The notes under the pieces are model-generated. The model ran no database searches and was not told the DNA's origin. It saw only the letters and a list, made by a program, of their open reading frames with translations. Shown here one piece after another: positions 4,256 to 26,153 of a DNA stretch of 32,000 nt (position 1 is the stretch's first letter; every line of letters starts with the position of its first letter). Origin of the DNA: an uncultured Cytophagia bacterium (GTDB taxonomy: Bacteria > Zhuqueibacterota > Zhuqueibacteria > Residuimicrobiales > Oceaniaggregativiventaceae); NCBI GenBank assembly GCA_964413725.1, contig CAYPUH010000012.1, forward strand, positions 1,389-33,388, read 5' to 3'. The position numbers were made by a program, and so were the translations under genes.

Positions 4256-4278
4256 AGGCAACCATACAGGAGGACATC

Positions 4279-6995: not shown

Positions 6996-7049
6996 AAAAA
7001 GACAAAAACCGGCAACTCGCTCGCTACTGTTAGCCATTTGCCGGCTTTT
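6996..7049 (-). terminator. Possible intrinsic terminator downstream of the 7187..8476 gene
   Basis: Inverted repeat CCGGCAA (7009-7015) / TTGCCGG (7038-7044). On the minus strand it is followed by TTTTTGTCTTTTT. The loop is long (22 nt, with an inner GCTA/TAGC pair), so this is atypical. Confidence 0.4.
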
Positions 7050-7186
7050 GACCGGTCATCCAATCCTCCGATTCGACTGATTGCCTTTTTAAACCATAAT
7101 TATTATGAATGTATCATGCAAGTATAATGTGATACTGACAGAAAAGGGGGGGATATAAAACACTCGGTCCGCTGATAACATCGGGT

Positions 7187-8476: not shown

Positions 8477-8857
8477 GGTTTGGGTCCACTTTATGAGTCT
8501 GATCTGTTCCGGCTTGTTTTACCTTATTCCGATCTATTCTGCAGACGGGGGGGCTGTTTCACCGGGTCTGTGATATGGTTATCTACAGGCTTTACCCTTT
8601 TGATGCGGAACGAAAACCCTGTTTGTCTGCCGACCGATTGTTTAGATTAGAGAATTATTTTGTTTGAAAGTCTATTTTAGAATTCGGATATTATAATAAC
8701 AGCGTGGGAAAGGTCAAGTCCCACCACGGTTTCAATGTTTCTGCACAACCGAGAGCCCCATACGATCTTTCCAGAGCCAAAAGAATAACTTTGCCAATCG
8801 GCATGAGTCTTGTAGCCCAAGCCTGTCATAACCACTCATGGAATAAGGGGACCCACC

Positions 8858-11800
8858 ATGTTCAGAAAACCCATCACCTGGATTGTCTTTGTCCTTCTTG
8901 CTGCGTTGAGTACGTTTGTCGCCGTGATCTTTTTTCCTCAGGCGTTTCCGATTGTCAGCATGGATTTGCAGATGGACCGGGAAGCGGCCCTGCAAAAAGC
9001 GGATGAACTGGCGGGTCGCTATCAGTGGGGCCCGGAGGAGTACGATCAGGCCGCGTCTTTTTCAGGGGACCAGCAGGTCCAGTATTATGTGGAGTTGGAG
9101 GCGGGCGGCAACGAGGCGTTGAGAGAGATGATGCAAAGCGGACTCTATCATCCGTATATCTGGACAGTTCGTCACTACCGTTCGGGAGAATCTCTCGAGA
9201 CACTTGTCATGTTCAAACCCAATGGGGATCCCTATGGCTTTTCATCCCGGCTCCCTGAGGATGATCCGGGAGCCTCCATTCCGGCGGATTCCGCCCGCAC
9301 CATCGCCGAGGACCTGGCGCGATCTGAATGGCAGGTCGACTTTTCGCCGTATCAGTTGGTCGAGAGCTCGGAAGATGTGCGTCTCGGCGGTCGGACGGAT
9401 CATACCTTTGTCTATGAACGCACCGATGAGCAGATAGGCCAGGCCTTTTATCGATTGCAGCTCACCGTGGCTGGGGATCAGCTGACGGGATTGCAGCGGC
9501 TGGTCAAGGTGCCGGACGCCTTTGACCGACGCTATGAAGAGATGCGGTCTCGCAATGAGATGCTGTCGATGTTCGGCATGGGCATTATCGTTCTGCTCTA
9601 TGGGGTGGTGGGGATTCTCATCGGTTTGTTTTATCTGTTGAAACAGCGGTATCTTTTGTGGCGAAAACCTCTGATCTGGGCAGCGTTTATCGCTTTGCTG
9701 CAAGTGTTCATGCTCGTCAATCGCTGGCCACTCATGTGGATGAATTATGATACGGCATTATCGCCCACCAACTTTTATCTGCAACGGTTCCTGTTGTTTA
9801 TCGGTGTGTTCATCGGCGAAACTCTGCTTCTGGCCGTGACGTTTATGGTGGCAGAGAGTCTATCCCGCAAGGCGTTTCCCCACCACGCCCAGTTCTGGAA
9901 ACTGTGGCGCAAGGAACCGGCCTCGACTCCACATGTCTGGGGACTGACTCTGGGAGGATATCTGTGGGTGCCCTTGACGTTTGCCTATGTCATCGGTTTT
10001 TACTGGGTTGCCAGTCGGGTTTTGGGGTGGTGGTCTCCCTCGGACGTGTTGTTTCAACCGGACCTCCTGGCCACCTATTTCCCCTGGCTCTCTTCCATTG
10101 CCATTTCATTGCATGCCGGATTTTGGGAAGAGACGCTGTTCAGAGCCATCCCTCTCGCCGGTGCGGTTCTGTTGGGCCGCCGGTTTGGAAAAACAGGCGT
10201 GTGGCTGGTTGGCGCCCTGATTCTGCAGGCACTGGTCTTTGGTGCCGGTCATGCCAATTATCCGCAACAACCGGCATATGCACGTATCGCCGAGTTGTTT
10301 GTACCGTTTCTGTTTTACGGGGTCATCTATCTGGTTTTTGGACTCTTGCCGGTGATTATCGCTCATTTTACCGTCGATGTGGTCTGGATTGCCTTGCCTT
10401 TGTTCGTCTCTACTGCCGACGGCATATGGGTGGACCGTGCCCTGGTGATCGTTCTTACCCTGGTACCCCTTTGGGTGATTCTCGTCTCCCGTTTGCGCAC
10501 CGGGAAATGGCTGTCGATTAAACCCTTTCTCAATCGAACATGGTCTCCACCCCTTCCAAAGACAATCGACGAATCAATGGATCAACCGGTCTCCACCTCC
10601 ATTTCCACCGGGTGCAGGAGAGCTCTTTGGGGAGTGGGACTCGCCGGAATTGTACTGTGGCTGGTATTCACATCATTTGATCAACAGACCATCCCCTTGC
10701 ATTTGCGCAAAACCGAGGCAATCGACTATGCCCAAACCGAGCTGACTCGGAGGGGTATTGAACTCCCCGAATCTTATCGCACGCTTACCCGGGTCAGTCA
10801 GCCTCTGGGAACCGATGACCGTTTTGTGTGGCAAACCGGAGGAATTCCGGCCTATGACTCGTTGATGGATGACTATCTCTCTCCGCCGAGATGGTTGGTG
10901 CGATATGCGACCTTTGAAGGAGATGTGGAGGAACGAGCGGAGGAATACCTCTTTTTCCTGGGAAATGAAGGCGAGTTGTTTCGTTATACACACAAACTGC
11001 CCGAATCACAGGTCGGTGCCCGATTGGTGGAAGATGACGCCAGAGACCTTGCCATTCAGCATATCAAGACCCGCTACAATCTGAATGCCGACACCCTGAT
11101 GGAAGTATCGGCTGAACCGTCAAAATTACCGGAGCGCACGGACTGGACATTCGCCTTTGCCGACACCAGTCGTTATCCCTTGTCAACCGGACAGGCCCGT
11201 ATCTGGGTGCGAATCGGAGGGGATCAGATCACCGACACCTATACCGAAATCTATGTTCCAGAGGAATGGACACGTGAGGAGCGCAATCGAACCCATGTTC
11301 TGGATATACTCAACACCACAGCCGGTGGATTGTTGCTGGGTGTTGTGTGTGCCGGTTTCATCTCAGGCATCATTTTCTGGAGCCGCAAAAGATTTTCAGT
11401 CAGGCTCTTTTTGAGTGTGGCCGGTGTGGTGCTGCTGGTGCGAATCGTCCTGTCGGCCAATTCCTGGCCCTCCATTGTCGCCCGGTTTGCCACGGCTCAA
11501 CCCTGGGATATTCAAACTCTGATTGTGCTCATCAGCATTGCCATCGGTGCTGTGGTGGCGTCCCTGGCTCTGGGAATCGTGATCGGATTTCTCCGTACCT
11601 GGATTCCCCACCAAGGTTTACAAAAACAGGGTGTGGTATTGGCGGTTTTGGCTGCCCTGGGGACACAGGGGTTCGCATCTGTTGTCCTGCACGCGAGTCC
11701 GTCTCTGGAGCCATACTGGTCTGACTATACGGTATTGGGGAATATGGCACCATTTATCTCCCTGACCCTGGGATCCGTCATGCATTTTCTGATGATGGCG

Positions 11801-12181
11801 GCTTTTTTCCTGCTTACGTTTCGATATATCAGTGCCCTCACGCATTTTGGCGGGAAACGACTCATCCTGCTGGTCCTGTTGAGTCTTGTTGCCGGATTTA
11901 TCATTGCCGGCGAGTATAACGTTCCCACGGTTTGGGCGTTTTTACTGGCCACAGTGGTACTGGGGGGACTGTTGTTGTTTCTCTATCTCTGTCTGTTCCG
12001 GCATCAGTTGAATCTGGTCTGGATCTTTACCGCCACGTTTGTTGTTCTGGAAAAACTGGCACAGGCTGTAGCATTCACACAGCCCTTTTTCTGGCTGGGA
12101 ATCGGCAGTTCTGTTGTGGTTGTGGCTGTGCTGGGTATTTTGTTTTTTCTGATGTTTTCTCGACCTCAAACGGATGCTTGA
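8858..12181 (+). CDS. Large polytopic membrane protein with a CPBP (CAAX/Abi-type) intramembrane protease core
   Basis: 1107 aa. ATG at 8858. The CPBP motifs occur in order: FWEETLFRAIPL (EExxxR), FGAGHANYP (FxxxH) and IAHFTVDVVW (HxxxD/N). Two homologous ~200-aa soluble modules are each followed by a multi-TM block. Confidence 0.85.
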   Translation: MFRKPITWIVFVLLAALSTFVAVIFFPQAFPIVSMDLQMDREAALQKADELAGRYQWGPEEYDQAASFSGDQQVQYYVELEAGGNEALREMMQSGLYHPYIWTVRHYRSGESLETLVMFKPNGDPYGFSSRLPEDDPGASIPADSARTIAEDLARSEWQVDFSPYQLVESSEDVRLGGRTDHTFVYERTDEQIGQAFYRLQLTVAGDQLTGLQRLVKVPDAFDRRYEEMRSRNEMLSMFGMGIIVLLYGVVGILIGLFYLLKQRYLLWRKPLIWAAFIALLQVFMLVNRWPLMWMNYDTALSPTNFYLQRFLLFIGVFIGETLLLAVTFMVAESLSRKAFPHHAQFWKLWRKEPASTPHVWGLTLGGYLWVPLTFAYVIGFYWVASRVLGWWSPSDVLFQPDLLATYFPWLSSIAISLHAGFWEETLFRAIPLAGAVLLGRRFGKTGVWLVGALILQALVFGAGHANYPQQPAYARIAELFVPFLFYGVIYLVFGLLPVIIAHFTVDVVWIALPLFVSTADGIWVDRALVIVLTLVPLWVILVSRLRTGKWLSIKPFLNRTWSPPLPKTIDESMDQPVSTSISTGCRRALWGVGLAGIVLWLVFTSFDQQTIPLHLRKTEAIDYAQTELTRRGIELPESYRTLTRVSQPLGTDDRFVWQTGGIPAYDSLMDDYLSPPRWLVRYATFEGDVEERAEEYLFFLGNEGELFRYTHKLPESQVGARLVEDDARDLAIQHIKTRYNLNADTLMEVSAEPSKLPERTDWTFAFADTSRYPLSTGQARIWVRIGGDQITDTYTEIYVPEEWTREERNRTHVLDILNTTAGGLLLGVVCAGFISGIIFWSRKRFSVRLFLSVAGVVLLVRIVLSANSWPSIVARFATAQPWDIQTLIVLISIAIGAVVASLALGIVIGFLRTWIPHQGLQKQGVVLAVLAALGTQGFASVVLHASPSLEPYWSDYTVLGNMAPFISLTLGSVMHFLMMAAFFLLTFRYISALTHFGGKRLILLVLLSLVAGFIIAGEYNVPTVWAFLLATVVLGGLLLFLYLCLFRHQLNLVWIFTATFVVLEKLAQAVAFTQPFFWLGIGSSVVVVAVLGILFFLMFSRPQTDA

Positions 12182-13862: not shown

Positions 13863-16529
13863 TTATTTTTGCTGTTTTTTAAATTCCAACCGGTAGAGAT
13901 GATTCCAAGGTAGCTCCAGGTCATCGGGCAGGAGCTCACCAGTGCCATCCAGGGAATAGCCGGCCCCGATCAGGCGGTCGAGGGTGAGTCGGACGGTGCC
14001 GGCAGCGGTGTCGGGATTGGGTGTCTGGATCCACAAGGTCCCCGCCATACCAGAGTCATCGATGTCGAGTTTGATGGACGCCGGGCCAAAAAAGGTTGGC
14101 AGCGACAGGACAGAGAGTCGTGCACCGGCACGTAGCCAGCTTTTCGGCAGGCCTGCCAGCAGATGAAGATCGGTGTCGCGTTCCAGCAGCAGCATGTTAC
14201 GCGTGACGCGCACCATCTGGATATTTCCCACAATGTGCGGGATATCTCCGGTCACACGGGTTCCCTCCCCTTTGGGAGACTGTTCCTCCCCATAGAGAAG
14301 CGTTGGTGTCGCGTGATTGGCAACGGCATAGAGCAATTCCTCCGCCTTGTCGGCGTTGCCTCGCCAGAGGCAGGCTAGGGCGCGATGACCGTCAAAGATG
14401 GGCCATACGCCGTCATCGAGCCAGCCGACGCTGTGCGTCAGTCCCTGGACTGTATGCCGATCCAGCAAATTCAGGGTTCCGTCGATCAGCGATTCTGTGG
14501 GAGAAAAAAGTTGACCCACATAGAGCGCATGTAACATGGCCCACTGCCCACGTTGTGGCACATCGGTTGCCGGATCATAGTCCATCTTTATCGGCAGGAA
14601 CCAGTTTCCGTATTCATCGCGTCGCTTGTCGCGCTCAACGGCACGCCGAAAGGATATGATAAAGTCTTGATATTCGTTCTTCCAGGCCTCGGCTTCGGGT
14701 CGTCGCATCACCTGGGCGGTCTGAACCGCCTCACCCAGCGCGATAAGGCTCCAGATGACGCTTCCATATGAGGTACCGATGCCGGCGATACCGCCGTCGG
14801 TCAGCCCGGCGGGCATAAGTCCATAGTTGAGTGCCGCGGGATCGGCAAGGGTTTGTTGCCGGAGCTCGATGACGTATTGAACCGCGCGTTCCAGTTGGGA
14901 CCAGTGCCTGTCGAGCCAGGCCCAGTCCTGAAACAGGCGGGCATAGCGGCACATGCTATAGATCAGATGGCCGGTTTCCCGATGCAGCAGGGCGGGTTTC
15001 ATCACGCCGGCCCGGCCATCGGGATCTTGATATTCCAGCATAGCCTGTATGGTTTGTCTGGCGGCCTCTTTATCGTCCAGCCAGGTGGCGACATCGAGCC
15101 CCCAGCCGGCATCACCGTACCAGAGTCCGCGATAGAGGGTTGGCCCGGGTTGAAATTGATAATGACCATCCACGTTTTCCCGGACTTGATACAGGGTGCG
15201 GATTCCCCCGTCGATCAGAGCCTGGATGCCCGCGTCCGGAACGGTCAACCGGTCCCAGGGCAGGGAGACGTGTTGCCAGTAGTCTATGGCCCGGTTTTGT
15301 TCATCATCCAGGTCAGGGAACGTGACCGGCCCCTCCGCAACACCATGGGTCACCAGAACATCGACCTGTCTGCAGGTGTCGGCAAAGGACAGCACCCAGT
15401 CGCTTTCCATCCGCTTGGCCTGTGTAAACGCGGGTCGGGTGGTGAGAAAGGGGGCATCATCAAAGAGCAGGGTTGCTGTGGCCGTATCGACGGTCAGGGG
15501 GCGCAGGGTATTGAGCCGCAACTGAAGGGTTCCTTCGGAACCGCTTATCTCGGTACGAAGCATATCCCGGCGCACCAGACCGGCATCGAGGAGCTCCATG
15601 CCGGCATCGATATGCCTTTCCGCGTTGGGTGTCGCGGCACCACTGATGACCTGGTTTTTTGTGACGACCTTTTCTGGCTGAAACAACCAGATGCCACAGA
15701 GGAGTACGTTGGGATCCTGACCGCGTGGCGAGGCGGTCACTTCCACAGATAGCCACCCGTCATCATCTATATCCTGACCCGCAAAAAAGAAGACCTGGGG
15801 AACATCCTGTCCGCCTGCCTCGATCAGGTCGACGGTCTGTTTTTCAGCACCTTCTACCAGCAGATCCATCAGCCGGACGATCTGGCCGTGGCGATAGACC
15901 TCGATAAAGCCGAGGGCCACTTTGCGTCTGGAGCCGGCCGGCACCTGCACATCGTAGCGGATGGATCGTCCCGTTCCCCAGGCCACGCTTTGAAACGCCG
16001 GGTCCCGATCCGGATGCGATTCCACCCAGGCGGGTGAGCCTGTCAGGCCCTCGTAACGCCGAAAAGAACTGTCGGGTGACATCGCTCCGGGCAGCCGTAT
16101 GGTGTCCGGTATCATGGCAAATGCTGACTGGCGCCAGCGGAGATCGTTTTCGCTGTGCTCTGTCAGGATCACCGGAATGCGAGGATCCAGGAGAGTCTGT
16201 GAAGTGCTGGCATCGGTCGCTTCTTTCACCTCCACTGCCACGGTGGTTTTGGGACGGGCATAGGGTCCGGGACCAAAGTCGTACACCAGGCGTCCCTCGT
16301 CATCCACCAGGGATTTCTGCCAGTCGTCTACCAGACAGATGGGCGTGGCCCAGCGGGCGGGTGGATACTCGTGCGTGACGGAATAATCCGCACGGATCGG
16401 ATCAGATCCCAACAACAGTACCCCCACGGTTATTATGATTATGGCCCTGGTGATACCGCTCCTGGAATCCTGAATAGCTGCTGATGGTGTTGTAAAAAAT
16501 GATCTCGCAAATCGTGATATCGGCAACAT
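13863..16529 (-). CDS. Secreted or anchored 888-aa protein, possibly an (alpha/alpha)6 six-hairpin glycosidase-like fold
   Basis: GGAG lies 4 nt upstream of the ATG at 16527-16529. An N-terminal hydrophobic segment (AIIIITVGVLLLGS) is present. The C-terminal half has the motifs GLWYGDAGWGLD, LEYQDPDGRAGV, GLMPAGLTDGGIAG and GWLDDGVWPIFDGH, reminiscent of six-hairpin glycosidases. The functional call is by eye only. Confidence 0.5.
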   Translation of the reverse strand: MLPISRFARSFFTTPSAAIQDSRSGITRAIIIITVGVLLLGSDPIRADYSVTHEYPPARWATPICLVDDWQKSLVDDEGRLVYDFGPGPYARPKTTVAVEVKEATDASTSQTLLDPRIPVILTEHSENDLRWRQSAFAMIPDTIRLPGAMSPDSSFRRYEGLTGSPAWVESHPDRDPAFQSVAWGTGRSIRYDVQVPAGSRRKVALGFIEVYRHGQIVRLMDLLVEGAEKQTVDLIEAGGQDVPQVFFFAGQDIDDDGWLSVEVTASPRGQDPNVLLCGIWLFQPEKVVTKNQVISGAATPNAERHIDAGMELLDAGLVRRDMLRTEISGSEGTLQLRLNTLRPLTVDTATATLLFDDAPFLTTRPAFTQAKRMESDWVLSFADTCRQVDVLVTHGVAEGPVTFPDLDDEQNRAIDYWQHVSLPWDRLTVPDAGIQALIDGGIRTLYQVRENVDGHYQFQPGPTLYRGLWYGDAGWGLDVATWLDDKEAARQTIQAMLEYQDPDGRAGVMKPALLHRETGHLIYSMCRYARLFQDWAWLDRHWSQLERAVQYVIELRQQTLADPAALNYGLMPAGLTDGGIAGIGTSYGSVIWSLIALGEAVQTAQVMRRPEAEAWKNEYQDFIISFRRAVERDKRRDEYGNWFLPIKMDYDPATDVPQRGQWAMLHALYVGQLFSPTESLIDGTLNLLDRHTVQGLTHSVGWLDDGVWPIFDGHRALACLWRGNADKAEELLYAVANHATPTLLYGEEQSPKGEGTRVTGDIPHIVGNIQMVRVTRNMLLLERDTDLHLLAGLPKSWLRAGARLSVLSLPTFFGPASIKLDIDDSGMAGTLWIQTPNPDTAAGTVRLTLDRLIGAGYSLDGTGELLPDDLELPWNHLYRLEFKKQQK

Positions 16530-16999: not shown

Positions 17000-18064
17000 T
17001 CAGTGCGTACCACCGTCGTTCAGGTCTGTGTGTTGTAACTGATCGAGTGGTTGCATATCGAGTGTCATCATGGTATCGATAACGCTGGCGCTCTGTGCCA
17101 TATGGTCAAAGACCCGAGCGTAATGTGTCCGGTCGCCAAACTCGAGCAGGGAATCCATTTGTCCAGCCAGCGTTTCCAGTCGGGGCAGATCCGGCGGTTT
17201 CCCGGCTTGCCGACAACAGGCAACATAGAGTGATGCCAGGGTATTGAAAAGCATCTTGTCCTGAACGAGAGTGACAGTGATAAAGCGATCGATTTCAGAA
17301 TAGGATGAATCTGATAACATGGCCTGGCAGGCGTCGAGTCGTTGATGATCCTGGATGCCTCCCAGTTCGTCTTGGTCGATGAGCCGGACCGTTCGTGCAT
17401 AGAACCACAGGGCATCGATAAGGTGACGTTGTGCTGCTGCCGTCAGGAGCATCGTAGTTGCGGATTCAGTATGAGCGTTTATCCGGTCGAATTCGACTTT
17501 GAGTGTTTTCAAATGTCGGGATCGTTCCAGCAATGCTCGTGGTATCTGTAGCGTATCTGCATCGGTATCGGTATGGATCTGAATCCCCGCAGGTAAGTCT
17601 TGCCGATGCAGTGAGATCCAGTCATCGGGCCGGGAGTCGGTCGCCAGTGTCATAATGATGGGCACATAGGTCGACGAGACCATCAGGCGTGCGGCTGCCA
17701 CATAGCCGGTGGCCAGAGCTGTAAAAGCCGGATTCCGATCCGGATCCATGCTGTTTATGATATCGAGAACCTGGTTATAGGTGTCGACGACGGCTTCATC
17801 CCGGTGCTGTTGTGAGGTGGTGGTGATGAGCGTTTTCAGGGTCTGATAGCGCGTCCGCATATAGGGCTGAATCCATTCCTTGCGATCATTTTTGGCCTTA
17901 TCCTCTCTGACGTATAGTCCGAGACCGATACTGGCACCGATCACGGCTATTCCCACCACTGCGATAATCCATCGCTCCCGTACGGAAAAATCCTCGCAAA
18001 TTCGTTTCTTGAGCCGCTTCCAGTTCGGAAACGGATCTGAGATGTTGGGATCGTCGGAAGGCAT
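17000..18064 (-). CDS. Hypothetical single-pass membrane protein (354 aa), largely helical; possible fifth gene of the TIR/SLOG/RyR cluster
   Basis: ATG at 18062-18064 with GAGGTGG just upstream. There is one TM segment (WIIAVVGIAVIGASIGLGLYV) after a short basic N-terminus. I recognise no motif. It is co-directional with, and 156 nt downstream of, the RyR membrane protein gene. Confidence 0.6.
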   Translation of the reverse strand: MPSDDPNISDPFPNWKRLKKRICEDFSVRERWIIAVVGIAVIGASIGLGLYVREDKAKNDRKEWIQPYMRTRYQTLKTLITTTSQQHRDEAVVDTYNQVLDIINSMDPDRNPAFTALATGYVAAARLMVSSTYVPIIMTLATDSRPDDWISLHRQDLPAGIQIHTDTDADTLQIPRALLERSRHLKTLKVEFDRINAHTESATTMLLTAAAQRHLIDALWFYARTVRLIDQDELGGIQDHQRLDACQAMLSDSSYSEIDRFITVTLVQDKMLFNTLASLYVACCRQAGKPPDLPRLETLAGQMDSLLEFGDRTHYARVFDHMAQSASVIDTMMTLDMQPLDQLQHTDLNDGGTH

Positions 18065-18220
18065 ACCACCTCGTCTGGTTTTCGGGACGTCCTGTATGGG
18101 TATCCCGTGTGATCGTCAAGACTCTGGATCTACAGAATGAATTTTGAATGGATCTTGGATGAATCGATCGAATCCCGCCGGACAGCGCCAAAAGGCGGTC
18201 GTGTCCCTGGAGGCAAAGTA

Positions 18221-19993
18221 TTATTTCGTATGAGTATTATAGAGTATCCGTTTACCCACCTCTGCCAGAATGACCGGGATATCGCGGATCGCATTGCGGT
18301 CATAGTTTCTGGTATCCTCATCCAGATCTGACCAGGGAACCAGGTTGGGATGAAGTTTATAGGCATCGTCACGTTCTCCGTATTCCCAGCCATGGATCCA
18401 TTTTTCCGCATTCCAGCGGTTGTGTTCAGCTTTTGCCAGAGACTCGATCATCGCCGCACCAAGATGTCGTTCCATTTCGTCCCCGTCAGGTTCGGGATCG
18501 CCTGTGGTGCGGTCGATGATTTCCGCTCCGGCACAACGCAGCTTTACCTTCAGGTGATCGGCCTGGCTTCGGTTACTCGCCTTATACTCTTCCGGCAAAA
18601 TCGACCAGGGTACGGCTGCCGGTTTGAGCGGGATTCCTTTCTCTTTGAGTTTTTTGAGCTCTCCCTCCAGATAGCGGGCGTGGATATGCCTGGCCATGTG
18701 ATCGAGTTCTTCATCGATCACGTACAGAGGCGAAGCGGATTCTCTTTCGGGGTCGAGGAAGAACAGACGGTTCCGGTCCTCCCGCATTGTTTTATTCGGG
18801 ATAAAACCCGAGTTGCAGGACGCGATGATCCTGAACGGTGTTTCGGTCTTGATCAGCTGCAGCCAGGAGATCAGAGAAAAGAGAACCGTGTCGTTATCGA
18901 CAAAGAGATAGACAACGTCATAACGGTTCCGCACCAGCCGGTCTGATAATTCCGGTTTGGTGAGGCTCTCCAACTCTCTGTCGATCCACTCGATTTCGAG
19001 GAGATTCTGAATGTGATGAGTCCGCCCGATATACTTTTGAAAGCCATTCGAGCGGTTGCTATCGATCACTGTGACACGGGCTTTTTCTGTGTTGATATAC
19101 TGTCCCAGCAAGGCATGCTGGGTCAGAAATGACCGGGCGAGAGTGTTGAATCCGAGGATGAGGATGCCGGGGGGTGGGGTCGTATTTTGGGTGACCGGTT
19201 TAAAGACATCCGGTGCGACTTTTTTATACAGCAGCCGGGCGCTGTTCTCGTAGGGGTTGAACACGCGGGCATCAAAATTGTCGGTGTTTTGGATAAAAAC
19301 CTCGTGGTGCTGGAGCTCCCGTTTGAGAGCCGGATCCGTGATCATGGCATAGGCGGTGAGGAAACGACTTTGTTTATGGTCCTCCTTGATGTGGAACAGC
19401 CCTTTGATGATCGACACATTGATAAAATCGTTGTCGGTTACGGCAAAGATATAGCGAGCGTGCTCGGCTTTAATCTGTCTAAAGACATCGGCGTCTGTGG
19501 GATTGTGTTTCAGAAACAGGACTTTCGAGGTTTTGAGTGAGGTGATCCAGGCGTTACCCGGATGTTCCGTGACGACCAGGATTTTGTTGTGCTGTCCTCC
19601 GGAAGGCGTTTTCATGTGGACACGGCTAAAGTTATCGATCATGGGGGCCAGAGAGTCATTATACCCCAAAAAGACAATGTGGTCACGCAGACGGATCATT
19701 CTGATGCGATAGAGATCGTCCGCGACAAAGGAGAGCGCAGTCTTGATGGCGGTCGTGGCCAGCAACAGAGGGGATAACCAGCGCGCAACATTGAGTAGAG
19801 AGAAAAACGCGACATCGTCCTCAACGGCTCCGGATTCGAGGATGAACAACTGGATCGAGAGATAGAGCGATTTGAGAACATCCCCGGCACCGGCATCGGT
19901 ACGATAAAAACCGATGGTTCCGGCCACGGTCAGGAGTACCGCACAGGCGCCGAGGAGATACCATTCGTAGCGTTTGATAACCTGGTTGAACAT
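18221..19993 (-). CDS. Membrane protein: 2-TM pore-loop-like N-terminus + two degenerate TrkA_N/RCK Rossmann domains + C-terminal bipartite RyR-repeat module
   Basis: 590 aa. TM1 is WYLLGACAVLLTVAGTIGFY. A P-loop-like stretch follows (SLYLSIQLFILESGAVEDD), then TM2 (FFSLLNVARWLSPLLLATTAI). The RCK-like blocks are HIVFLGYNDSLAPMI...VLFLKHNPTDADVFRQIKAEHARYIFAVTDNDFINVSII and GILILGFNTLARSFL. The C-terminus (SLAKAEHNRWNAEKWIHGWEYGERDDAYKLHPNLVPWSDLDEDTRNYDRNAIRDIPVIL) closely matches the RyR-domain consensus. A second RyR-like repeat (MARHIHARYLEG...VPWSILPEEYKASNRSQADHLKVKL) precedes it. Confidence 0.8.
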   Translation of the reverse strand: MFNQVIKRYEWYLLGACAVLLTVAGTIGFYRTDAGAGDVLKSLYLSIQLFILESGAVEDDVAFFSLLNVARWLSPLLLATTAIKTALSFVADDLYRIRMIRLRDHIVFLGYNDSLAPMIDNFSRVHMKTPSGGQHNKILVVTEHPGNAWITSLKTSKVLFLKHNPTDADVFRQIKAEHARYIFAVTDNDFINVSIIKGLFHIKEDHKQSRFLTAYAMITDPALKRELQHHEVFIQNTDNFDARVFNPYENSARLLYKKVAPDVFKPVTQNTTPPPGILILGFNTLARSFLTQHALLGQYINTEKARVTVIDSNRSNGFQKYIGRTHHIQNLLEIEWIDRELESLTKPELSDRLVRNRYDVVYLFVDNDTVLFSLISWLQLIKTETPFRIIASCNSGFIPNKTMREDRNRLFFLDPERESASPLYVIDEELDHMARHIHARYLEGELKKLKEKGIPLKPAAVPWSILPEEYKASNRSQADHLKVKLRCAGAEIIDRTTGDPEPDGDEMERHLGAAMIESLAKAEHNRWNAEKWIHGWEYGERDDAYKLHPNLVPWSDLDEDTRNYDRNAIRDIPVILAEVGKRILYNTHTK

Positions 19994-20095
19994 GGGATTC
20001 CCGCTTTTTCATTACCAGGGGTCATCAGACCCAAATATTTTTAATATCTTTGGATGGATCGATGCATGCATTATTCATATTTTGACATGCCGGGA

Positions 20096-22372
20096 TCAGG
20101 CATCGAAAAATTGAATAGATCGAAGACAATTGCCGTCAAGAGCTCGGGTGATATAACCGGACCGGAATCGCAGATCAAATTTCACCAGCCCGCACACGCG
20201 AATATGCTGTTGATCGGTGGGGGGCGCTGACATATAGAGAGATCGGCTCTGACCATCCTTCATCACAAGATCGATTCTTCTCCAGATACACTCGCGCTTG
20301 ACATGATGTTTGTCGAGCCTGCTAAACCGGATGGTTTGATCATCGATGGTGATTTCTGTAACGTCTCGAAGATCGATTCGGATTTTTTGCGGTTCAATTC
20401 CCGGATCTTCCGGAGCCCCCTCGAGTGCCGTGAGTGCCAGTGATTTGATTCCTTTAAATTCGATTTTCTTGCCGGTGTGATACACAAACTCGCCTTTAAG
20501 CGCATTCCAGTCCACAGAGTCTGCAAAGGGAACAGCCCGGGTCTGTAACCGAACCGAGTCCACGCTTTCCACCGGCACGGCTCGCATTCTGCCATCTACG
20601 GCAATATTGATCGATGAAACCTGTTCACCACAGCCCGCTCCCCGGGATACCGCCAGGAGCACATCATGACGTGTATCATCGATGAGGCTGACCGCTACCT
20701 GCCTCCAGACACACTGAACGGGTCTGTTCTCTTTGTGTGCGGAAAAATAGATGGTTTTTGTTGCCTCGATTGTTTCTCCAAATACCAGGGACTTTATATA
20801 TTGCAGATTGATCCTGATTTTGGTGGGACGGATCTGATCATCATCGGAGGGTTCTTCAGTAAAATCCAGATGGTCGCCGCTCATGTCGGTATGTCTGGCG
20901 ATTTGGGTGAAGGTGGTTTTCTCTCCGTTTATGAGCGTCAGTTCGCCCGGAATGTGGTTGTCATAGTTGCTTTTGGGTTGATAGAATGTACGCCATTCAC
21001 CGGCATCGACAGGATGGCTTCCGGACTTTACAGTGGGTCTCTCAACATTCTGCGGGCTGTTCTTTTTTTCCAGCTCTTGAATCAATTTGTCCAGAGCTTG
21101 TTTTTTGCCCCGCACACTTTGTGTGACGAGTTTTCTGATCCGGTACAATTCTTCCCGGCCGTTTAATTTTTTTACCGCCGCAATCGCCGAACCGTAAAAA
21201 GAGTCCTCGTCGATATCTTCCAATAGATCGAGAATACGGCTGAGGGTTTTCTCACGTTTCGAATCGCCGGTGTACTCCAGTAGGGTCTCTATGATTTTGC
21301 TGTTTGTTGTCCCCCTACTCTCATCCAACAAATCATAGAGATAATTCCATTTTTCAGAATCGGAGAGTGTCGAGATACGAACAGCATCCAGTCCGGGACC
21401 CTGGGTGCTAAAACTCGCTTTGATAGAATATTTGAGAGCCTCGAGTATGGGGTGGGGGTTTTTCTCGCCCTCCGGAGTCGTCAGGCTATAGAACAAGAGT
21501 TTTGCAAGTTTAACCGTCTCACAATGGCCCTTGTGAGTCGACAATCTGAACCGCTCATCGCTGCTCAACCGGCAAAACAAGTCGATCTCTTTTCCCTGCC
21601 ATTTTGAATGAATTTCTCGCCAGATTTGCTTTGAATTTTTGTCCTCAATTCCTCCTACACCAAATGTCTGCAGCTCTATTTTTGAAATGGCGTCAAGAAT
21701 ATATTGTTTGACCTCCTTTTGTGAGACCTGTGGATCCAAAGAGTCATTTTTTGGGGGATTTACTTTAGTTGATTCTGGCTGAGACTCCTGACCCGGGGAT
21801 AGAGTCTGCTGCTTTTTATGTGTAGGCTCCGGAGGTTGGGCACTCGGCCCAGCAGGAGATGTATCTGCGGTTTCAGCGGCATATTTTATTCTTTCGAGAG
21901 TTCTCTCCACAGACTGGAGGATATTCTCCCGTGCACCGAGAAAGTTTTTTCGAGAGTCCGTATAATCGACCAGTGGTGTGACATCACCGGGAATGATTTG
22001 CATCCTGACCAGCCATGAAGCCGGATGGTGGGGTGGAACCGACCAGGGTTCGACCAGGATGGGGACGATCTCGAGGGTTTCACGGCTTTTCTCCTGGATT
22101 CTGGGCAACTCTTTGGTTATGATAAACTCGGAATTGAGGAAATCCCGACTCAATAAAAGAATGGCAATATCCGCCCGATCGATTTCGGCGGCAATTTTCC
22201 GTTCGTATTCGATGCCCGGCAGGGTTTTCAGATCGTGATCGTACCAGACCTTTACGCCCTGCCAGCGAAGGCTGTCCTCCAGAAACGGTATGATCTGAAA
22301 CGGATCGTTTCTATCCACCCAGGAGGAATTTTTATGCGCGTAACTCACGAAAATATTGATTTGTCGATCCAT
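20096..22372 (-). CDS. TIR-domain protein (ThsB-like candidate NADase/signal synthase) with a helical middle region and tandemly duplicated C-terminal domain
   Basis: 758 aa. GAGG lies 5 nt upstream of the ATG at 22370-22372. The N-terminus reads INIFVSYAHKNSSW...GVKVWYDHDLKTLPGIEYERKIAAEIDRADIAILLLSRDFLNSEFIITKELPRI. This matches the TIR_2 pattern (FxSYxxxD/N, w.D, pG, the hhhhS block, then the conserved Glu). A low-complexity P/Q/S linker spans aa 165-220. Two homologous ~140-aa C-terminal repeats follow. Confidence 0.88.
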   Translation of the reverse strand: MDRQINIFVSYAHKNSSWVDRNDPFQIIPFLEDSLRWQGVKVWYDHDLKTLPGIEYERKIAAEIDRADIAILLLSRDFLNSEFIITKELPRIQEKSRETLEIVPILVEPWSVPPHHPASWLVRMQIIPGDVTPLVDYTDSRKNFLGARENILQSVERTLERIKYAAETADTSPAGPSAQPPEPTHKKQQTLSPGQESQPESTKVNPPKNDSLDPQVSQKEVKQYILDAISKIELQTFGVGGIEDKNSKQIWREIHSKWQGKEIDLFCRLSSDERFRLSTHKGHCETVKLAKLLFYSLTTPEGEKNPHPILEALKYSIKASFSTQGPGLDAVRISTLSDSEKWNYLYDLLDESRGTTNSKIIETLLEYTGDSKREKTLSRILDLLEDIDEDSFYGSAIAAVKKLNGREELYRIRKLVTQSVRGKKQALDKLIQELEKKNSPQNVERPTVKSGSHPVDAGEWRTFYQPKSNYDNHIPGELTLINGEKTTFTQIARHTDMSGDHLDFTEEPSDDDQIRPTKIRINLQYIKSLVFGETIEATKTIYFSAHKENRPVQCVWRQVAVSLIDDTRHDVLLAVSRGAGCGEQVSSINIAVDGRMRAVPVESVDSVRLQTRAVPFADSVDWNALKGEFVYHTGKKIEFKGIKSLALTALEGAPEDPGIEPQKIRIDLRDVTEITIDDQTIRFSRLDKHHVKRECIWRRIDLVMKDGQSRSLYMSAPPTDQQHIRVCGLVKFDLRFRSGYITRALDGNCLRSIQFFDA

Positions 22373-22540
22373 ATCACCCTCAATCCTGCCACCCGGATTC
22401 TATGTCAACAGAATTTAATGAAAACGATTTTCCCGAGACGATAGTGCTTAAGGATATGAATTGCCTGTTCAAAAGCGTTACGATATCCCGTTGCATTTTA
22501 AAAGGATCCGGTACCTTGCACCGAACCCGGGTATCGGTTC

Positions 22541-23497
22541 CTAATAGCCATGGAGAAATGCGTTGATGGCATTTTCGTCATTATCGAGAACGATCAGGTT
22601 ATCGTGCTCTCTCCACTCGTGGTCCAGACTCAACGCATCCGCTGCCCGGCCACTGCCGGCGACGACACCCACTCGTGCTCCCAGGGCCAGTGCCAGCCGG
22701 TATTCAAAGGCGGCGATTGTACCGCCATTGATCCCCAGGAGGTGCACCTGTGTCGGCCTGACACCTTGCGCGAGGAGATCGGTCCAGATCTGCAAGGGCT
22801 CCAGATTGGAAAACGTGGACCCTGTGGTATACACCAACCGATCGTAGCGAGGATCAGTTCGAGTGGTGTCCGGGACGTGTTGTGGCAGATAGCCGAACAG
22901 ATGGAACTCTGGAGCAGAGTTGTTGTTGCGAAGGGAGACGGTTGCCTGTCCCACCAGGCCGGGGATGCCGGAGAGGGTTCCTCCGGAGATCACTGTCCCT
23001 GTGCAGTGTTTGAAAACATGGTTCAAGAGTTCGAGATTCTGTGCCTCTTGGGTGTCCGGCATCTGTTCGGCACCCCCTGCGATGATCGTGACGGGTTGGG
23101 AAAAGTGCTCTGTATGAAGAGCGCGATCTTGAAGATATCGGATGGTCTCATCACCGAAATGAACGACTTGTGCCAACATTAAAAGAGTGTCGACACGAGA
23201 GAGAATCGGGGACAGAACAGGATCATCGCCATTCAGCCCGACCAGTCTGTCCCGTTCGAGCTCAACATCTTTGACAGAAAGACGTGTCTGACCTGAAATC
23301 AAAAGATTCACTGCCTTGAGATAGGTGTGTTCGCTCTCCTCCGGCGATTGCTGCAATAACCATCGGCCCAGATTCAGATAGTCTCGGGCCGAACTCCCGT
23401 TCAGACAAGTCTGATTGCGACACGCCGGCATGTCATGATGTTGAGCATTGGCGACGGATTCTTTATTCTGTTTTTGGTTGTCTGCGTTGGGTTTCAC
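22541..23497 (-). CDS. SLOG/LOG-like Rossmannoid protein (candidate nucleotide-signal sensor or processor) with an N-terminal helical extension
   Basis: 318 aa. Three Gly-rich loops occur in LOG/SLOG order: PVTIIAGGAE, GTVISGGTLSGIPGLVGQA and HLLGINGGTIAAFEYRLALALGARVGVVAGSGRAAD. The last is comparable to the LOG PGGxGTxxE motif. The track start is a GTG at 23497, overlapping the upstream gene by 35 nt. The first ATG is at 23429-23431. Confidence 0.65.
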   Translation of the reverse strand: MKPNADNQKQNKESVANAQHHDMPACRNQTCLNGSSARDYLNLGRWLLQQSPEESEHTYLKAVNLLISGQTRLSVKDVELERDRLVGLNGDDPVLSPILSRVDTLLMLAQVVHFGDETIRYLQDRALHTEHFSQPVTIIAGGAEQMPDTQEAQNLELLNHVFKHCTGTVISGGTLSGIPGLVGQATVSLRNNNSAPEFHLFGYLPQHVPDTTRTDPRYDRLVYTTGSTFSNLEPLQIWTDLLAQGVRPTQVHLLGINGGTIAAFEYRLALALGARVGVVAGSGRAADALSLDHEWREHDNLIVLDNDENAINAFLHGY

Positions 23498-26153
23498 GAC
23501 TCGATCCGCTCTGTTCTACAATCACATAACCCGCCAGTGCCAACATGTCGGGATATTTTTTAATGGTGTCGCGATCTTTGTCCTGTTCACCGGAAGACAG
23601 GTCTGAATACATTACCATCGATGGGTGGTGTTTGCGATAATCATTGCGGATCTCTGCAGGTGTCCAGCCCTGGTTTCTTCTGAATTTCATCCAGCCCTCG
23701 TGTTCCTTTTCTGCCAGGACTTCCAGTTGGGATGTGCCGGTGTCCGCATTTTTTTGTTTTAGAAAGGTTGGAAAATTGATCACGGTTTCCGAGGTCAGCT
23801 CAGTTTTGTGGCGGAGTTCCAGTCCCACCGCATTTAGGTTGGTTTGAATACGCCTGGCCGCTTCGATGTTGTCCAATTTGGCATCCATGGGCAGCAAATT
23901 AAAGGCGCGGTCATAGGCATCGGGTTTGATACGGCTGCCGAGCCATGATGCATGAATCCTGGGTGCGAGAATGTCGGCAATCCGATCCTGTTCGCTTTTG
24001 CTGTCGACCACCATAAGCGTTTTAAAATCATCCAGGGGCACACACAGGGACAGCACTGGAGTGGAAGGCAAGCTGGATTGGATGATCCCACCGGGTACGT
24101 CTGATTTGAGATAGGAGAGCAATTTGCTCATGGACCGTGACCCGTTGAGATAATCTGGAATGGAAATCAGGGCATTGAGCACACCCCAATCAATGTGCAG
24201 GGCTTTATTCCCGGTGAGTCTGAGCAATCCACGAATAAACAGAGCTCTTCGGACCGGAAAGCTATAATCTTCCTCGTCTTTTTCCCAGCACCGGGATTCA
24301 AGATTATAAAGCAATCTCGGATTGGGGCCCAGAACATTCAGATATCCATGCAGTCGGCTTTTAAAATCTGGTCCTTTTTTAAAGACAAAATCGTTAAACT
24401 CTTTCAGTTCCCGCTCATGTTTGGTGATCTCTGCGTCGGTTGGGGAAGCGACAAGGGTGGGTTCTTTCGGCCCGAATTGCTCCAATGTATAGCTGGTGGC
24501 ACCGGCAAAGAAAAAGATGCACTTGCCAATGGGGTGGGTCATCTGACCTTCCTGGAACTGTCCGTCCTGCATAGGTGCGAGCAGGTATTGCAGCCATCGG
24601 TATTCCTGGGCATCAAACTCGTCCCAGAACACAAAAGGAGTGTTCCCTCTTAGGGCGGAATCGCGTACCTGATGGAACGCGCCGATCAGATCGTTCGGAT
24701 CGGAAAACTGGGACAAATTAAAGACGAGATAATCAAAGGATTTACCGTTTATGCCCTCTTTTGCCAGTTGTTTGACTGCAAACGATTTTCCGGCACCCGG
24801 AGGACCAAAGATCGCGATAGAAAGGGGTTGCTCCGCATCGCCCTCGCGTACATAGTCAAAGACAAGGTTGCGGATATTTCGCAGGTTTTCAATCTCGGTT
24901 CGATCGACGGTGACATAGTTTTTGATTTTTAATGACGGAACATTAAAGAGTTCCGTTTCTCCATGCTGGACAATGCGCCGGGCCAATACTGCCAGAGGTG
25001 TACGGTTGTGAAGAAAGCCATAGTTGTTTTCGAGCAGCGTCCAGGATTCTATTCTGTGTTCAAAATCCTGATGATCGGGATTGGGGACAAATGATCTGGG
25101 GATGTCTTCCTGCTGTGTAGCGAGTGTTTGGGCTATTGTTTCAGCGGGAAAGGCAGGGGGGTGGGAGCCCTTTTGCAGATGACCGGTGTCCACCAACTGT
25201 TGGTTGGCCCGAATTCCCGTGATGACAGCCTTTTCAAAGTGAGAAACCCGTTTGTCGTGATGTTCAAGGCAGTCTAGGTCGCTGGTCAATCCATAGACAA
25301 AGCCGGCTGTAAATGTGAGTTGATTGCCAATGACGGTTTTGCCTTGACTTTGTGCCCGCTCTCCTTCCATATAGAGTGCGTCAAAAAAGAGGCGGTACTG
25401 GGTAGCGTCCCGTTCGTTTGAGTCGTGAATACAAAAGGTACCTTCCTGACCGATGGTGACGATGATATGGCGGCAGAGTCGACGCAGGTGTTGAAATGGA
25501 CCGTTTGAACGCAGTGCGTAGGCAAGATCGCCGGCAGTGCGTTCCCAGGAGAGCCCTTTGCTGATCATCGCATTTTCGCGCCGCAAATCATTGATAGAAA
25601 TGACAAGGATCAATCTGTTGGTGTTGAGGCGGGTGACTGTATCCCACAACGCGCCGGTACCCAGGGGGCGAGCCATCTTGAGCACCACCCAGGGAGATGG
25701 ATCGGTGGATTCCAGCAACGCGGTTGGCCAGGCCGGTTTGGATGTTTCATTGCGGAATCCCAGATATCCATCGTCGAGAACGACGACGTTTGCCCGGTCA
25801 GGTGCCGTTTCGATCTTGAGAGCGGAATAGTCACACCGGTTGTAGCAGGCATCATTGTATCCCAGCAGGGTTTTGACATGCCAGTGTATGCCATCGTCAT
25901 CGACAGAGGATCTTTGCCATTCGGCGTAGGCTTGTTGTTGAATGGACCGGCGCAAACGGGTGTTCAGACCATAGGATACGGACCGTCCGGATTGCTTCAG
26001 GATAGTGTGGAGCAGCCGTGACCCACCTACAGAGTCTTCGATTCGGGTACCGCTTTTTACTCTGGAACTGGTCTGTTGCCGCTTGCCTTTGTAAATGTTG
26101 TTGTCGATAACCACATCGCCGGTGACATGGATATGGGGAGGGGACGACATCAT
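23463..26153 (-). CDS. Multidomain ATPase: ribokinase/pfkB-like N-domain (degenerate) + classical AAA+ core + C-terminal bipartite RyR-repeat module
   Basis: 896 aa. The Walker A is SIAIFGPPGAGKSFAVKQLAKE, the Walker B is PFVFWDEFDA, and the sensor-1 region is CIFFFAGATS. The C-terminus (LEVLAEKEHEGWMKFRRNQGWTPAEIRNDYRKHHPSMVMYSDLSSGEQDKDRDTIKKYPDML) is an RyR domain, preceded by an RyR-like repeat (ILAPRIHASWLGS...FNLLPMDAKLDNIEAARRIQTNL). The N-terminal ~320 aa show the pfkB motif order: HVTGDVVIDNN, SVGGSRLLHTILKQSG, VVVLDDGYLG, LILVISINDLRRE, IIVTIGQEGTFCI, and VIGNQLTFTAGFVYGL in place of the GAGD block. Confidence 0.8.
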   Translation of the reverse strand: MMSSPPHIHVTGDVVIDNNIYKGKRQQTSSRVKSGTRIEDSVGGSRLLHTILKQSGRSVSYGLNTRLRRSIQQQAYAEWQRSSVDDDGIHWHVKTLLGYNDACYNRCDYSALKIETAPDRANVVVLDDGYLGFRNETSKPAWPTALLESTDPSPWVVLKMARPLGTGALWDTVTRLNTNRLILVISINDLRRENAMISKGLSWERTAGDLAYALRSNGPFQHLRRLCRHIIVTIGQEGTFCIHDSNERDATQYRLFFDALYMEGERAQSQGKTVIGNQLTFTAGFVYGLTSDLDCLEHHDKRVSHFEKAVITGIRANQQLVDTGHLQKGSHPPAFPAETIAQTLATQQEDIPRSFVPNPDHQDFEHRIESWTLLENNYGFLHNRTPLAVLARRIVQHGETELFNVPSLKIKNYVTVDRTEIENLRNIRNLVFDYVREGDAEQPLSIAIFGPPGAGKSFAVKQLAKEGINGKSFDYLVFNLSQFSDPNDLIGAFHQVRDSALRGNTPFVFWDEFDAQEYRWLQYLLAPMQDGQFQEGQMTHPIGKCIFFFAGATSYTLEQFGPKEPTLVASPTDAEITKHERELKEFNDFVFKKGPDFKSRLHGYLNVLGPNPRLLYNLESRCWEKDEEDYSFPVRRALFIRGLLRLTGNKALHIDWGVLNALISIPDYLNGSRSMSKLLSYLKSDVPGGIIQSSLPSTPVLSLCVPLDDFKTLMVVDSKSEQDRIADILAPRIHASWLGSRIKPDAYDRAFNLLPMDAKLDNIEAARRIQTNLNAVGLELRHKTELTSETVINFPTFLKQKNADTGTSQLEVLAEKEHEGWMKFRRNQGWTPAEIRNDYRKHHPSMVMYSDLSSGEQDKDRDTIKKYPDMLALAGYVIVEQSGSSRETQRRQPKTE

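Follow-up and report, generated by a model that had tools for sequence, protein, structure and literature searches.

A bacterial TIR and SLOG locus with RyR-domain ATPase and channel-like proteins: a candidate Thoeris-like signaling system

How would the nucleotide signal of a TIR protein be received in a locus that lacks the Thoeris effector ThsA? This question is raised by a 32,000-nucleotide (nt) stretch of contig CAYPUH010000012.1 (assembly GCA_964413725.1; the whole stretch is hereafter called the window) from an uncultured bacterium of the Zhuqueibacterota. Four genes in it, A-D, encode a ribokinase-fold and AAA+ protein, a stand-alone SLOG protein, a TIR protein, and a channel-like membrane protein, respectively, and A and D end in the same two-repeat RyR domain. 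We favor, with a probability of about 0.6, the reading that A-D constitute a Thoeris-like TIR nucleotide-signaling conflict system with RyR Repeat1-2 as the receiving domain. The system follows the known logic of TIR signals, but its sensor domain and effector architectures have not been described for host systems. Judging from the sequences, the role of A-D is probably anti-phage, and the locus is probably an unrecognized host side of a bacterial immune pathway.

Layout of the locus and the RyR domains of A and D

Domain calls were made with Pfam at curated cut-offs, and fold calls with AlphaFold2 (AF2) models and Foldseek. The features of A-D are listed below with their positions in the window.

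23463-26153, minus strand: gene A, 896 amino acids (aa); ribokinase-fold N-terminal domain, MoxR-like AAA+ core, and C-terminal two-repeat RyR domain
24999-26153, minus strand: A N-terminal domain, residues ~1-385; ribokinase/pfkB fold (Foldseek)
24204-24941, minus strand: A AAA+ core, residues ~405-650 (Pfam bpMoxR and AAA; motifs)
23514-24011, minus strand: A RyR domain, residues ~715-880; two repeats, Repeat1-2-like (Pfam, profile, Foldseek)
22541-23497, minus strand: gene B, 318 aa; stand-alone SLOG (LSDAT_prok) with an N-terminal helical extension
22616-23095, minus strand: B SLOG core, residues 135-294 (Pfam LSDAT_prok)
20096-22372, minus strand: gene C, 758 aa; TIR_2, low-complexity linker, helical middle part, and duplicated C-terminal domain
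21863-22372, minus strand: C TIR_2, residues ~1-170 (Pfam)
20678-20959 and 20255-20506, minus strand: C repeats, residues 472-565 and 623-706 (self-comparison)
18221-19993, minus strand: gene D, 590 aa; two-transmembrane-helix (2TM) pore, two RCK modules, and two-repeat RyR domain
19694-19993, minus strand: D TM1, short pore-helix-like helix, loop, and TM2, residues 1-100 (AF2)
Minus strand, within D: Rossmann/RCK 1, residues 104-262, and RCK 2, residues 275-425 (AF2, Foldseek)
18239-18712, minus strand: D RyR domain, residues 428-585; two repeats (Pfam; Foldseek to RyR3 R12)

Together with the neighboring gene E, these genes form five co-directional open reading frames (ORFs) on the minus strand, whose coordinates are exactly those given in a first-pass annotation made from the sequence alone. 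A and B overlap by 35 nt. The intergenic gaps, which that annotation had put at 100-170 nt, measured 168 nt (B-C), 102 nt (C-D), and 156 nt (D-E). Promoter and terminator scans of the window gave no signal above shuffled expectation, and Rfam and tRNA scans of the window were empty. The TIR, SLOG, and RyR calls of the first-pass annotation were all supported by Pfam.

The RyR domain was matched above the cut-off of 27.4 bits in both A (4.2e-12, 46.6 bits) and D (2.5e-14, 53.7 bits). Both had been proposed to carry two RyR units, and in each model ~194 columns could be aligned to human RyR3 Repeat1-2, a two-repeat domain. For the C-terminus of A, Foldseek retrieved human RyR3 Repeat1-2 with ADP and dantrolene (9l9b; 194 columns), and the A-family profile matched RyR R12 in the Protein Data Bank (PDB) at 4e-40.

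Phage proteins with this domain bind cyclic ADP-ribose (cADPR) isomers. RyDEP, a phage RyR-domain (PF02026) protein, cleaves 2'/3'cADPR through the catalytic dyad H75/D117 and contacts its ligand with H75, W78, H100, and D117; six of the eight homologues tested bound 2'/3'cADPR, two of them with measured nanomolar affinity (PMC13232231). RyR Tad binds 1''-3' glycocyclic ADPR (gcADPR) with a dissociation constant (KD) of 43 nM as well as 1''-2' gcADPR and cADPR, and its contacts are H129/W132, K147/H154, and K170/D171 (bioRxiv 10.64898/2026.06.04.730250). In these two 2026 preprints, the role of the phage RyR domain surprised the authors, and a host counterpart was not identified (PMC13232231; bioRxiv 10.64898/2026.06.04.730250).

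The ligand residues of the phage proteins recur in the window. The second repeat of A contains H818, W821, R836, H843, K859, and D860 at a spacing identical to that of the RyDEP and RyR Tad ligand residues, and D contains H524, W527, H548, and D565 with a loop one residue shorter. By alignment, the H, W, and D of this triad are kept in 70, 67, and 72 of 76 A-family members, in 11, 10, and 9 of 11 D-like proteins, in all seven SLOG-RyR fusions, and in 7, 8, and 7 of 8 other RyR proteins, respectively. Thus, the RyR ligand pocket is conserved across the A and D families. A and D share with RyDEP and RyR Tad both the Pfam domain and the spacing of the ligand-contact residues. The phage proteins, however, are single-repeat homodimers used in counter-defense, whereas the RyR domains of A and D are host-encoded, form a tandem two-repeat pseudo-dimer, and stand at the C-terminus of large proteins beside TIR genes.

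The RyR domain occupies the extreme C-terminus in every architecture seen. Because phage RyR proteins bind cADPR isomers through residues that are kept in A and D, and because the C-terminus is the position of sensor domains in STAND and other effectors, the RyR module is probably the signal-binding sensor itself, and the RyR domains of A and D would bind a cADPR isomer. The first-pass annotation had treated A and D as output modules joined by a shared RyR domain; the shared domain stands, and its role is refined from a common tag to a probable sensor.

Architectures of the four proteins

Channel-like topology was predicted for D. In its AF2 model (predicted local distance difference test score, pLDDT, 79.6), a short helix and then a loop lie between two long helices; two Rossmann modules come next, and the RyR domain is last. 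Foldseek ranked first GsuK (4gx0; 7e-8 over the whole chain, 602 columns), a K+ channel that combines a 2TM pore with tandem RCK domains; the next matches were the TrkA ring, MthK, Slo1, and RyR3 R12. The model and these matches bear out the earlier description of a 2TM pore-loop protein with two RCK-like modules; D shares with GsuK, MthK, and TrkA the order of TM1, pore helix, TM2, and two RCK-type Rossmann modules. The Pfam TrkA_N match of D (7e-5, 23.6 bits) falls 0.2 bits short of the 23.8 cut-off, and TrkA_N passes clearly in other members of the family. An exhaustive profile search recovered at least 150 D-family representatives at 50% identity, aligned over nearly the whole profile at E<1e-153.

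The AAA+ assignment of A holds: bpMoxR (PF20030) was matched at 7.6e-9 with 35.4 bits (cut-off 27) and AAA at 8e-5, and Walker A (GPPGAGKS, residues 450-457) and Walker B (WDEFD, residues 510-514) are intact and invariant in 30 family members. The N-terminal domain, described before as pfkB-like, was confirmed as such at the level of fold. In the AF2 model of A (pLDDT 87.7; predicted TM-score, pTM, 0.87), it resembles ketohexokinase (3nbv), HldA (4e8w), ribokinase (5bye), and the archaeal nucleoside kinase MjNK (2c49), with Foldseek E-values of 5e-8 to 1e-6, target-normalized TM-scores of 0.44-0.58, and ~350-390 aligned columns for the top matches. Pfam PfkB gave no match to A at E<=0.1. By our own motif reading, made without a residue-level structural alignment, the position of the catalytic GAGD motif holds 'GNQLTFTAGFVYGL' in A and 'GxxSCFTAA' in the family consensus, neither containing Asp, while G12-D13 and G43-G44 of this domain are invariant across the family alignment. 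Because the GAGD catalytic motif is not recognizable, the ribokinase-fold domain is probably a binder of a ribose-containing ligand and not a kinase. In its ATPase core, A resembles the MoxR-type AAA+ conflict systems (bpMoxR), and its neighborhoods are likewise rich in STAND-TPR/WD40 and TIR genes. It differs from them in its unique ribokinase-fold and RyR domains, and the vWA/beta-propeller partner of such systems was not identified in the window locus.

B starts at GTG, with an alternative ATG at codon 23. Its LSDAT_prok (PF18171) SLOG domain was matched at 5.3e-11 with 42.6 bits (cut-off 25.4), in line with the call of a stand-alone SLOG protein, and contains the conserved motifs PVxIIAGGA, GTVISGGT, and GGxxAxxEYR. 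The SLOG core is 38-44% identical to the SLOG domain of RelA_SpoT-TPR-SLOG-RyR fusion proteins. SLOG and LSDAT were reportedly defined by Burroughs et al. in 2015 (NAR).

C was matched by Pfam TIR_2 (3.6e-11, 44 bits; cut-off 28) and by the PADLOC ThsB1 model (5.9e-11). The duplicated C-terminal domain proposed for it was recovered by self-comparison, in which residues 472-565 and 623-706 are 27% identical (E=5e-7). The middle and C-terminal parts of C have no homologues across 80 related loci.

Genomic neighborhoods, fusions, and relatives

A-family proteins are conserved over their full length (35-59% identity, ~98% coverage) in at least 477 homologue clusters, carried by at least 247 species-representative genomes. 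The phyla include Planctomycetota, Bacteroidota, Chloroflexota, Acidobacteriota, Actinomycetota, Chlorobi, Verrucomicrobiota, Desulfobacterota, and Euryarchaeota. The family is host-borne, because IMG/VR yielded just two partial relatives.

For the analysis of neighborhoods, 80 A-family loci were collected from species-representative genomes, their ORFs were called, and iterative searches were run with the window proteins (loci are given below by L numbers). TIR-like, D-like, SLOG, and RyR genes cluster one to three genes from A-family genes in these genomes, which span many phyla. TIR-like genes occupied 13% of positions at ±1, 10% at ±2, 5% at ±3, and 0-3% at a distance of five or more genes (odds ratio, OR, 6.3, p=9e-7). 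D-like genes (OR 11.5, p=0.004) and an unnamed family linked to SLATT (OR 32, p=3e-8) showed the same decay with distance. The TIR-like, D-like, and SLATT-linked neighbors are mostly co-directional with A. Among 63 A neighbors, Pfam matched TIR_2 in 25, DUF4062 in 13, STAND NTPases (TPR/WD40) in 9-15, RyR in 10, and TrkA_N in 9, and PADLOC-DB 2023 gave domain-level TIR matches only.

Homologues were therefore found to be syntenic in unrelated genomes, at A-anchored as well as D-anchored loci. The A, SLOG, D, and TIR families recur together in distant phyla with varying gene order. Complete sets occur in the metagenome-assembled genome (MAG) of a Bacteroidales bacterium, beside two integrases, and in a Verrucomicrobiota MAG. 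Among the D-anchored loci, a minimal module of TIR_2 (4e-24), an 82-aa RyR-only protein, and a D-like protein occurs without A on 21 contigs, and another arrangement combines D-like, A-like, RyR-only, and DUF4062-NACHT-TPR proteins.

Several fusions place the domains of these families on one polypeptide. An 813-aa TIR_2-NACHT-wHTH-RyR protein (wHTH, winged helix-turn-helix; L058:13545-15983) carries RyR at the sensor position of an NLR-like (NOD-like receptor-like) protein, and a 660-aa TIR_2-P-loop-RyR protein is encoded by a Methanobacteriaceae archaeon (L065:12586-14565). RelA_SpoT-RyR fusion genes lie near A-family genes; they comprise RelA_SpoT-TPR-LSDAT_prok-RyR proteins of ~850 aa in three phyla (L011:3448-6018, L023:1807-4356, and L069:3256-5829) and a 971-aa NUDIX-RelA_SpoT-RyR protein (L031:3710-6622). 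By their domain content, the RelA_SpoT fusions are candidate alarmone-synthetase-type toxins under SLOG and RyR control.

RyR-only host proteins of 82-116 aa, similar in size to the phage sponges RyDEP and RyR Tad, are encoded directly beside TIR, D-like, or A-like genes. They could be threshold-setting buffers or the source of the sponges captured by phages. The RyR-only genes are located as follows.

L089:2215-2463: RyR-only protein
L012:13554-13838: RyR-only protein
L086:8273-8623: RyR-only protein
L058:1356-1646: RyR-only protein
L077:9932-10219: RyR-only protein
L081:9932-10216: RyR-only protein

The SLATT-linked unnamed family consists of proteins of ~170-200 aa with the motifs GVTGHR, SPLAEGADR, and GGT. 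It lies directly downstream of A at 24 loci (e.g., L035:7061-7648), and 7 of 25 members carry a fused C-terminal SLATT_1 pore domain. By its motifs, the family is tentatively SLOG-like; hhalign against the family of B and a PDB sequence search gave no match, and its Pfam matches (YpsA, YAcAr, and Nuc_deoxyrib_tr) were all below threshold. One member (L101:5807-6358) neighbors a published TIR locus of the 'ATPase' type and sits beside patatin and TPR-S genes.

Plasmid-borne relatives were also found. Plasmid pA of Methylobacterium sp. FF17 (L103, record 1567-11944) carries an A-family gene (33% identity, 96% coverage) that adjoins a very large SIR2-family gene, a transposase gene, and a helix-turn-helix gene; SIR2 is also NAD-consuming. 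The Arcobacter plasmid CP146529.1 (L105, record 46178-49901) encodes a split D-like pair, an NAD-binding protein (325 aa) and a RyR-domain protein (167 aa), after which comes a DUF4062 protein. The pair is flanked by genes of a type I restriction system and by integrase, recombinase, and transposase genes, a mobile, defense-island-like setting in a cultured organism. A Clostridium plasmid homologue lies among chemotaxis and histidine-kinase genes, with no mobile or defense context.

The closest A homologue (59% identity; L002:4341-7322) is not followed by B, C, or D. In their place are genes whose Pfam matches, BNR_2-like and inosine-uridine nucleoside-hydrolase-like, are weak and fall short of the cut-offs; this arrangement hints at a different, nucleoside-processing partner set.

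A JGI metagenome contig, L001, is colinear with the window at ~85% nt identity and lacks the 5.9 kb corresponding to window ~20036-25947, that is, most of A and all of B and C. A remnant ORF corresponding to A residues 2-69, junction sequence, and a stop codon form a deletion scar. Since such a close relative has deleted this segment, the locus is accessory. The L001 copy of D has a separate in-frame internal deletion of 555 nt (window 18681-19235), by which the second RCK module was lost. Both deletions fall within L001 9691-11230.

Gene E, named in the first-pass annotation as a possible fifth member, is the co-directional neighbor of D.

17000-18064, minus strand: gene E, 354 aa; single-pass membrane protein

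Its description as a single-pass protein was correct, with one transmembrane helix at residues 32-50. Its membership was not upheld: E had no match in Pfam, PADLOC, or NCBIfam and no homologue in the 80 related loci, and it is kept at 82% amino-acid identity in L001, where A-C are lost.

The flanks of the window contain sulfatase, arylsulfotransferase, glycosidase-like protein, DegT, NUDIX, and DUF554 genes. Two further window ORFs, 13863-16529 (minus strand, 888 aa) and 8858-12181 (plus strand, 1107 aa), had no Pfam match at E<=0.001, and the product of 4279-5277 (plus strand) carries Por_Secre_tail, a sorting domain of type IX secretion. Taken with the sulfatase and arylsulfotransferase genes, this protein suggests that the DNA comes from the FCB group.

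Known systems, rival explanations, and proposed mechanism

The nearest known logic is that of type I Thoeris (ThsB with a SIR2-SLOG ThsA), in which a TIR protein makes an ADPR-derived signal, a sensor domain reads the signal, and the effector is triggered. The locus resembles it in that a TIR gene adjoins proteins with nucleotide-sensor domains and that a SLOG domain is present. It differs in that ThsA is absent, the SLOG is of the LSDAT_prok type, the candidate sensors are RyR domains, the outputs are a channel-like protein and an AAA+ ATPase, and there are four genes instead of two. For ThsA, either SIR2-SLOG or Macro-TM, PADLOC gave no match in A, B, D, or E, and no SIR2 or Macro domain was found there; as the first-pass annotation had stated, the SLOG of B stands alone and is not fused to SIR2. 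On the whole window, PADLOC-DB 2023 called a lone ThsB-like TIR (C, at domain level) and nothing for A, B, D, or E, so that the cluster is not called as a named system.

That annotation had also called the system undescribed, which stands in part. In full-text literature searches, no paper was found to connect host RyR proteins with TIR or SLOG. On the other side, type X Thoeris, which consists of a TIR and an 'ion channel', may cover D.

Nine observations weigh against the favored reading. (i) The K+ selectivity filter TVGYG is not present in the D-family alignment, in which the filter region reads LYLxLQLFxLxSG (LSIQLFILESG in the window), and therefore D should not be filed as a K+ channel. 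(ii) Both GxGxxG motifs of D are degenerate: LGYNDS at window 19660-19690 (residues ~104-115) and LGFNTLA at 19130-19170 (residues ~276-288), compared with GLGxxG elsewhere in the family. The window protein shares these degenerate motifs with a 54%-identical relative, and together with the altered filter and the additional C-terminal RyR domain they set D apart from GsuK and MthK. (iii) K87 of the C TIR lies in a column that is Glu in 49 of 52 related TIRs, the next residue being E88, so that C matches the ThsB-type models with the catalytic Glu shifted by one residue. (iv) The H843 equivalent is kept in just 2 of 11 D-like proteins. (v) RyR R12 domains also bind ATP and ADP (PDB 6uhh, 9l9b), and hence the ligand could be an ordinary adenine nucleotide. 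(vi) About 30 of the 80 A loci have no partner gene within three genes, many of these contigs being short. (vii) No mobile elements or further defense genes were found in the window flanks, which hold housekeeping-type genes; the window's own flanks are not a defense island. (viii) The shortened D of L001 has a ratio of non-synonymous to synonymous substitution rates (dN/dS) of 0.20, like the flanking genes, although the adjacent TIR gene is lost; this could mean that D does not rely on C or that the deletion happened recently. The idea that D decays in L001, as a sign of its dependence on A-C, was dropped, as this value shows no decay. (ix) The type X TIRs made none of the known signals (bioRxiv 10.64898/2025.12.03.692087).

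Four other explanations were weighed. The one that survives best, which we nevertheless consider unlikely, holds that the RyR domains are signal quenchers, either sponges or RyDEP-like glycosidases. A, D, and the small RyR-only proteins would then impose a threshold or shut the response down, and the true effector would be B or some unlinked protein. This explanation is consistent with the RyDEP dyad being kept in A (H818/D860) and D (H524/D565), with the sponge-like RyR-only proteins of the host loci, and with SLOG being the established sensor in type I Thoeris. However, the dyad is also present in non-catalytic sponge homologues and therefore does not discriminate. In addition, RyR stands at the C-terminal sensor position on output domains (the channel, the RelA_SpoT head, and TIR-STAND proteins), and the minimal module of TIR, RyR, and D-like proteins offers no other candidate effector.

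A second, improbable explanation is non-immune: A and D would sense adenine-nucleotide or NAD status, and the TIR and STAND genes would belong to independent, loosely co-localized NADase-type defense. RCK domains are regulated by NAD. GsuK (ADP-bound) and the TrkA ring (ATP-gamma-S-bound) are regulated by adenine nucleotides according to their PDB entry descriptions, and the nucleotide binding of animal RyR R12, the metabolic genes in the window flanks, the setting of the Clostridium homologue, and the A loci without nearby partners fit this explanation as well. It is opposed by the steep fall of the enrichment with distance, by the co-direction of most partners, by the TIR-RyR fusions on one polypeptide, by loci beside integrases, a type I restriction-modification system, and transposases, and by the deletion of A-C in the close relative.

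Third, and with only a slim chance in our estimate, the cluster could be published type X Thoeris with accessory genes and hence essentially known. Yirmiya et al. predicted 29 Thoeris types and validated types V-XI, including type VII (SLATT) and type X (a TIR and an 'ion channel', ThsK, with unknown signal); their effector categories include SLATT, SLOG, and 'ATPase' (bioRxiv 10.64898/2025.12.03.692087). D is channel-like and adjoins a TIR gene. As in types VII and X, the TIR is thus paired with a membrane-permeabilizing effector, and SLATT proteins are frequent beside A-family genes. An AAA+-RyR or stand-alone SLOG partner has not been described for these types, however, and the survey covers two-gene operons, which do not account for A or B. 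In the parts of its text and supplements available, RyR, PF02026, and TrkA are not mentioned. The type X TIRs fall in a short ThsB-type cluster shared with type II, from Bacillus and Vibrio (bioRxiv 10.64898/2025.12.03.692087), whereas C is a TIR_2 protein of 758 aa; plasmid homologues of the type X TIR were found in type II (Macro) loci only. The RyDEP paper cites the survey and draws no link to host RyR effectors (PMC13232231). Because the type X signal is unknown, there is room for a new sensor.

The possibility that the published 'ATPase' category corresponds to the A family was rejected for one exact example. A TIR of this category was found at 100% identity on JAESFP010000002.1, and its partner is a ParA-like and nSTAND1 NTPase that lacks RyR and does not match the A profile. 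BLAST of the 'ATPase'-category TIRs against the collected loci gave generic TIR similarity only.

We give least credence to A-D being two or more independent systems adjacent by chance, e.g., a stand-alone A, a TIR NADase, and a separate channel, which the 100-170 nt gaps, the uninformative promoter and terminator scans, the frequent lack of partners of A, and the survival of D in L001 would allow, but which is countered by the joint recurrence of the same four families in distant phyla in varying order, by the RyR and SLOG modules common to the members and the fusions that link the families, and by the 35-nt overlap of A and B.

Under the favored reading of a Thoeris-like system with RyR as the receiving domain, the following mechanism is proposed. 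C would detect infection via its unique duplicated C-terminal region, and its TIR domain would, by homology, use NAD+ to make a signal derived from ADPR, in the simplest case a cADPR isomer. The signal would bind the C-terminal RyR pockets of D and A, in which the pocket residues are present, and probably also the SLOG domain of B. D may form a GsuK-like tetrameric 2TM channel, in which the ligand would act via the tandem-RCK ring and open a pore that is not K+-selective; the open pore would collapse the membrane potential and lead to growth arrest or abortive infection. In A, the ligand may switch the MoxR-like AAA+ motor, while the ribokinase-fold domain probably holds a ribose-containing ligand. 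Since A is the best-conserved component and, as a hub, is paired with interchangeable effectors, we speculate that its role is more likely regulatory or amplifying than lethal to the cell; the output partners of the A family comprise SLATT proteins, D-like channels, and RelA_SpoT-SLOG-RyR proteins. B may act as a second ligand-binding or ligand-processing module that works with A and D.

The modules of the locus also bear on animal channels. Animal RyR and TRPM2 channels are reported to be regulated by cADPR or ADPR, and the SLOG-like region of TRPM2 binds ADPR. Prokaryotic counterparts of their ligand modules, Repeat1-2 of RyR and the LSDAT SLOG of TRPM2, stand side by side here and beside a TIR gene. 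The locus proteins differ from these channels in being small and cytoplasmic or 2TM, with homology confined to the modules, and no TRPM structure was matched in the sequence search. Held more tentatively, and short of even odds, is the broader proposal that RyR Repeat1-2 is an ancestral and widespread receptor with which bacterial and archaeal hosts read ADPR-type immune signals made by TIR proteins. If this is true, the receptor has been combined with channels, AAA+ ATPases, RelA_SpoT toxins, and TIR-STAND proteins, often together with an LSDAT SLOG; phage RyDEP and RyR Tad would be captured copies of the host receptor; animal RyR and TRPM channels would have inherited their ligand modules from a single prokaryotic immune pathway; and the long-disputed action of cADPR on RyR would gain a concrete candidate site in RyR R12.

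By current estimates, at least 8% of prokaryotic genomes carry TIR-based signaling of the Thoeris kind, and several of its types have unknown signals and sensors. The locus and its relatives supply a host counterpart to the phage RyR proteins, namely two large families that carry the same domain with the same pocket residues and that are tied to TIR by neighborhood and fusion in many phyla, including some archaea. If confirmed, the system would extend TIR immunity by a new sensor domain and by two new classes of effector, would explain the origin of the phage sponges, and would provide a testable evolutionary and mechanistic link from bacterial immunity to the ligand modules of animal RyR and TRPM channels.

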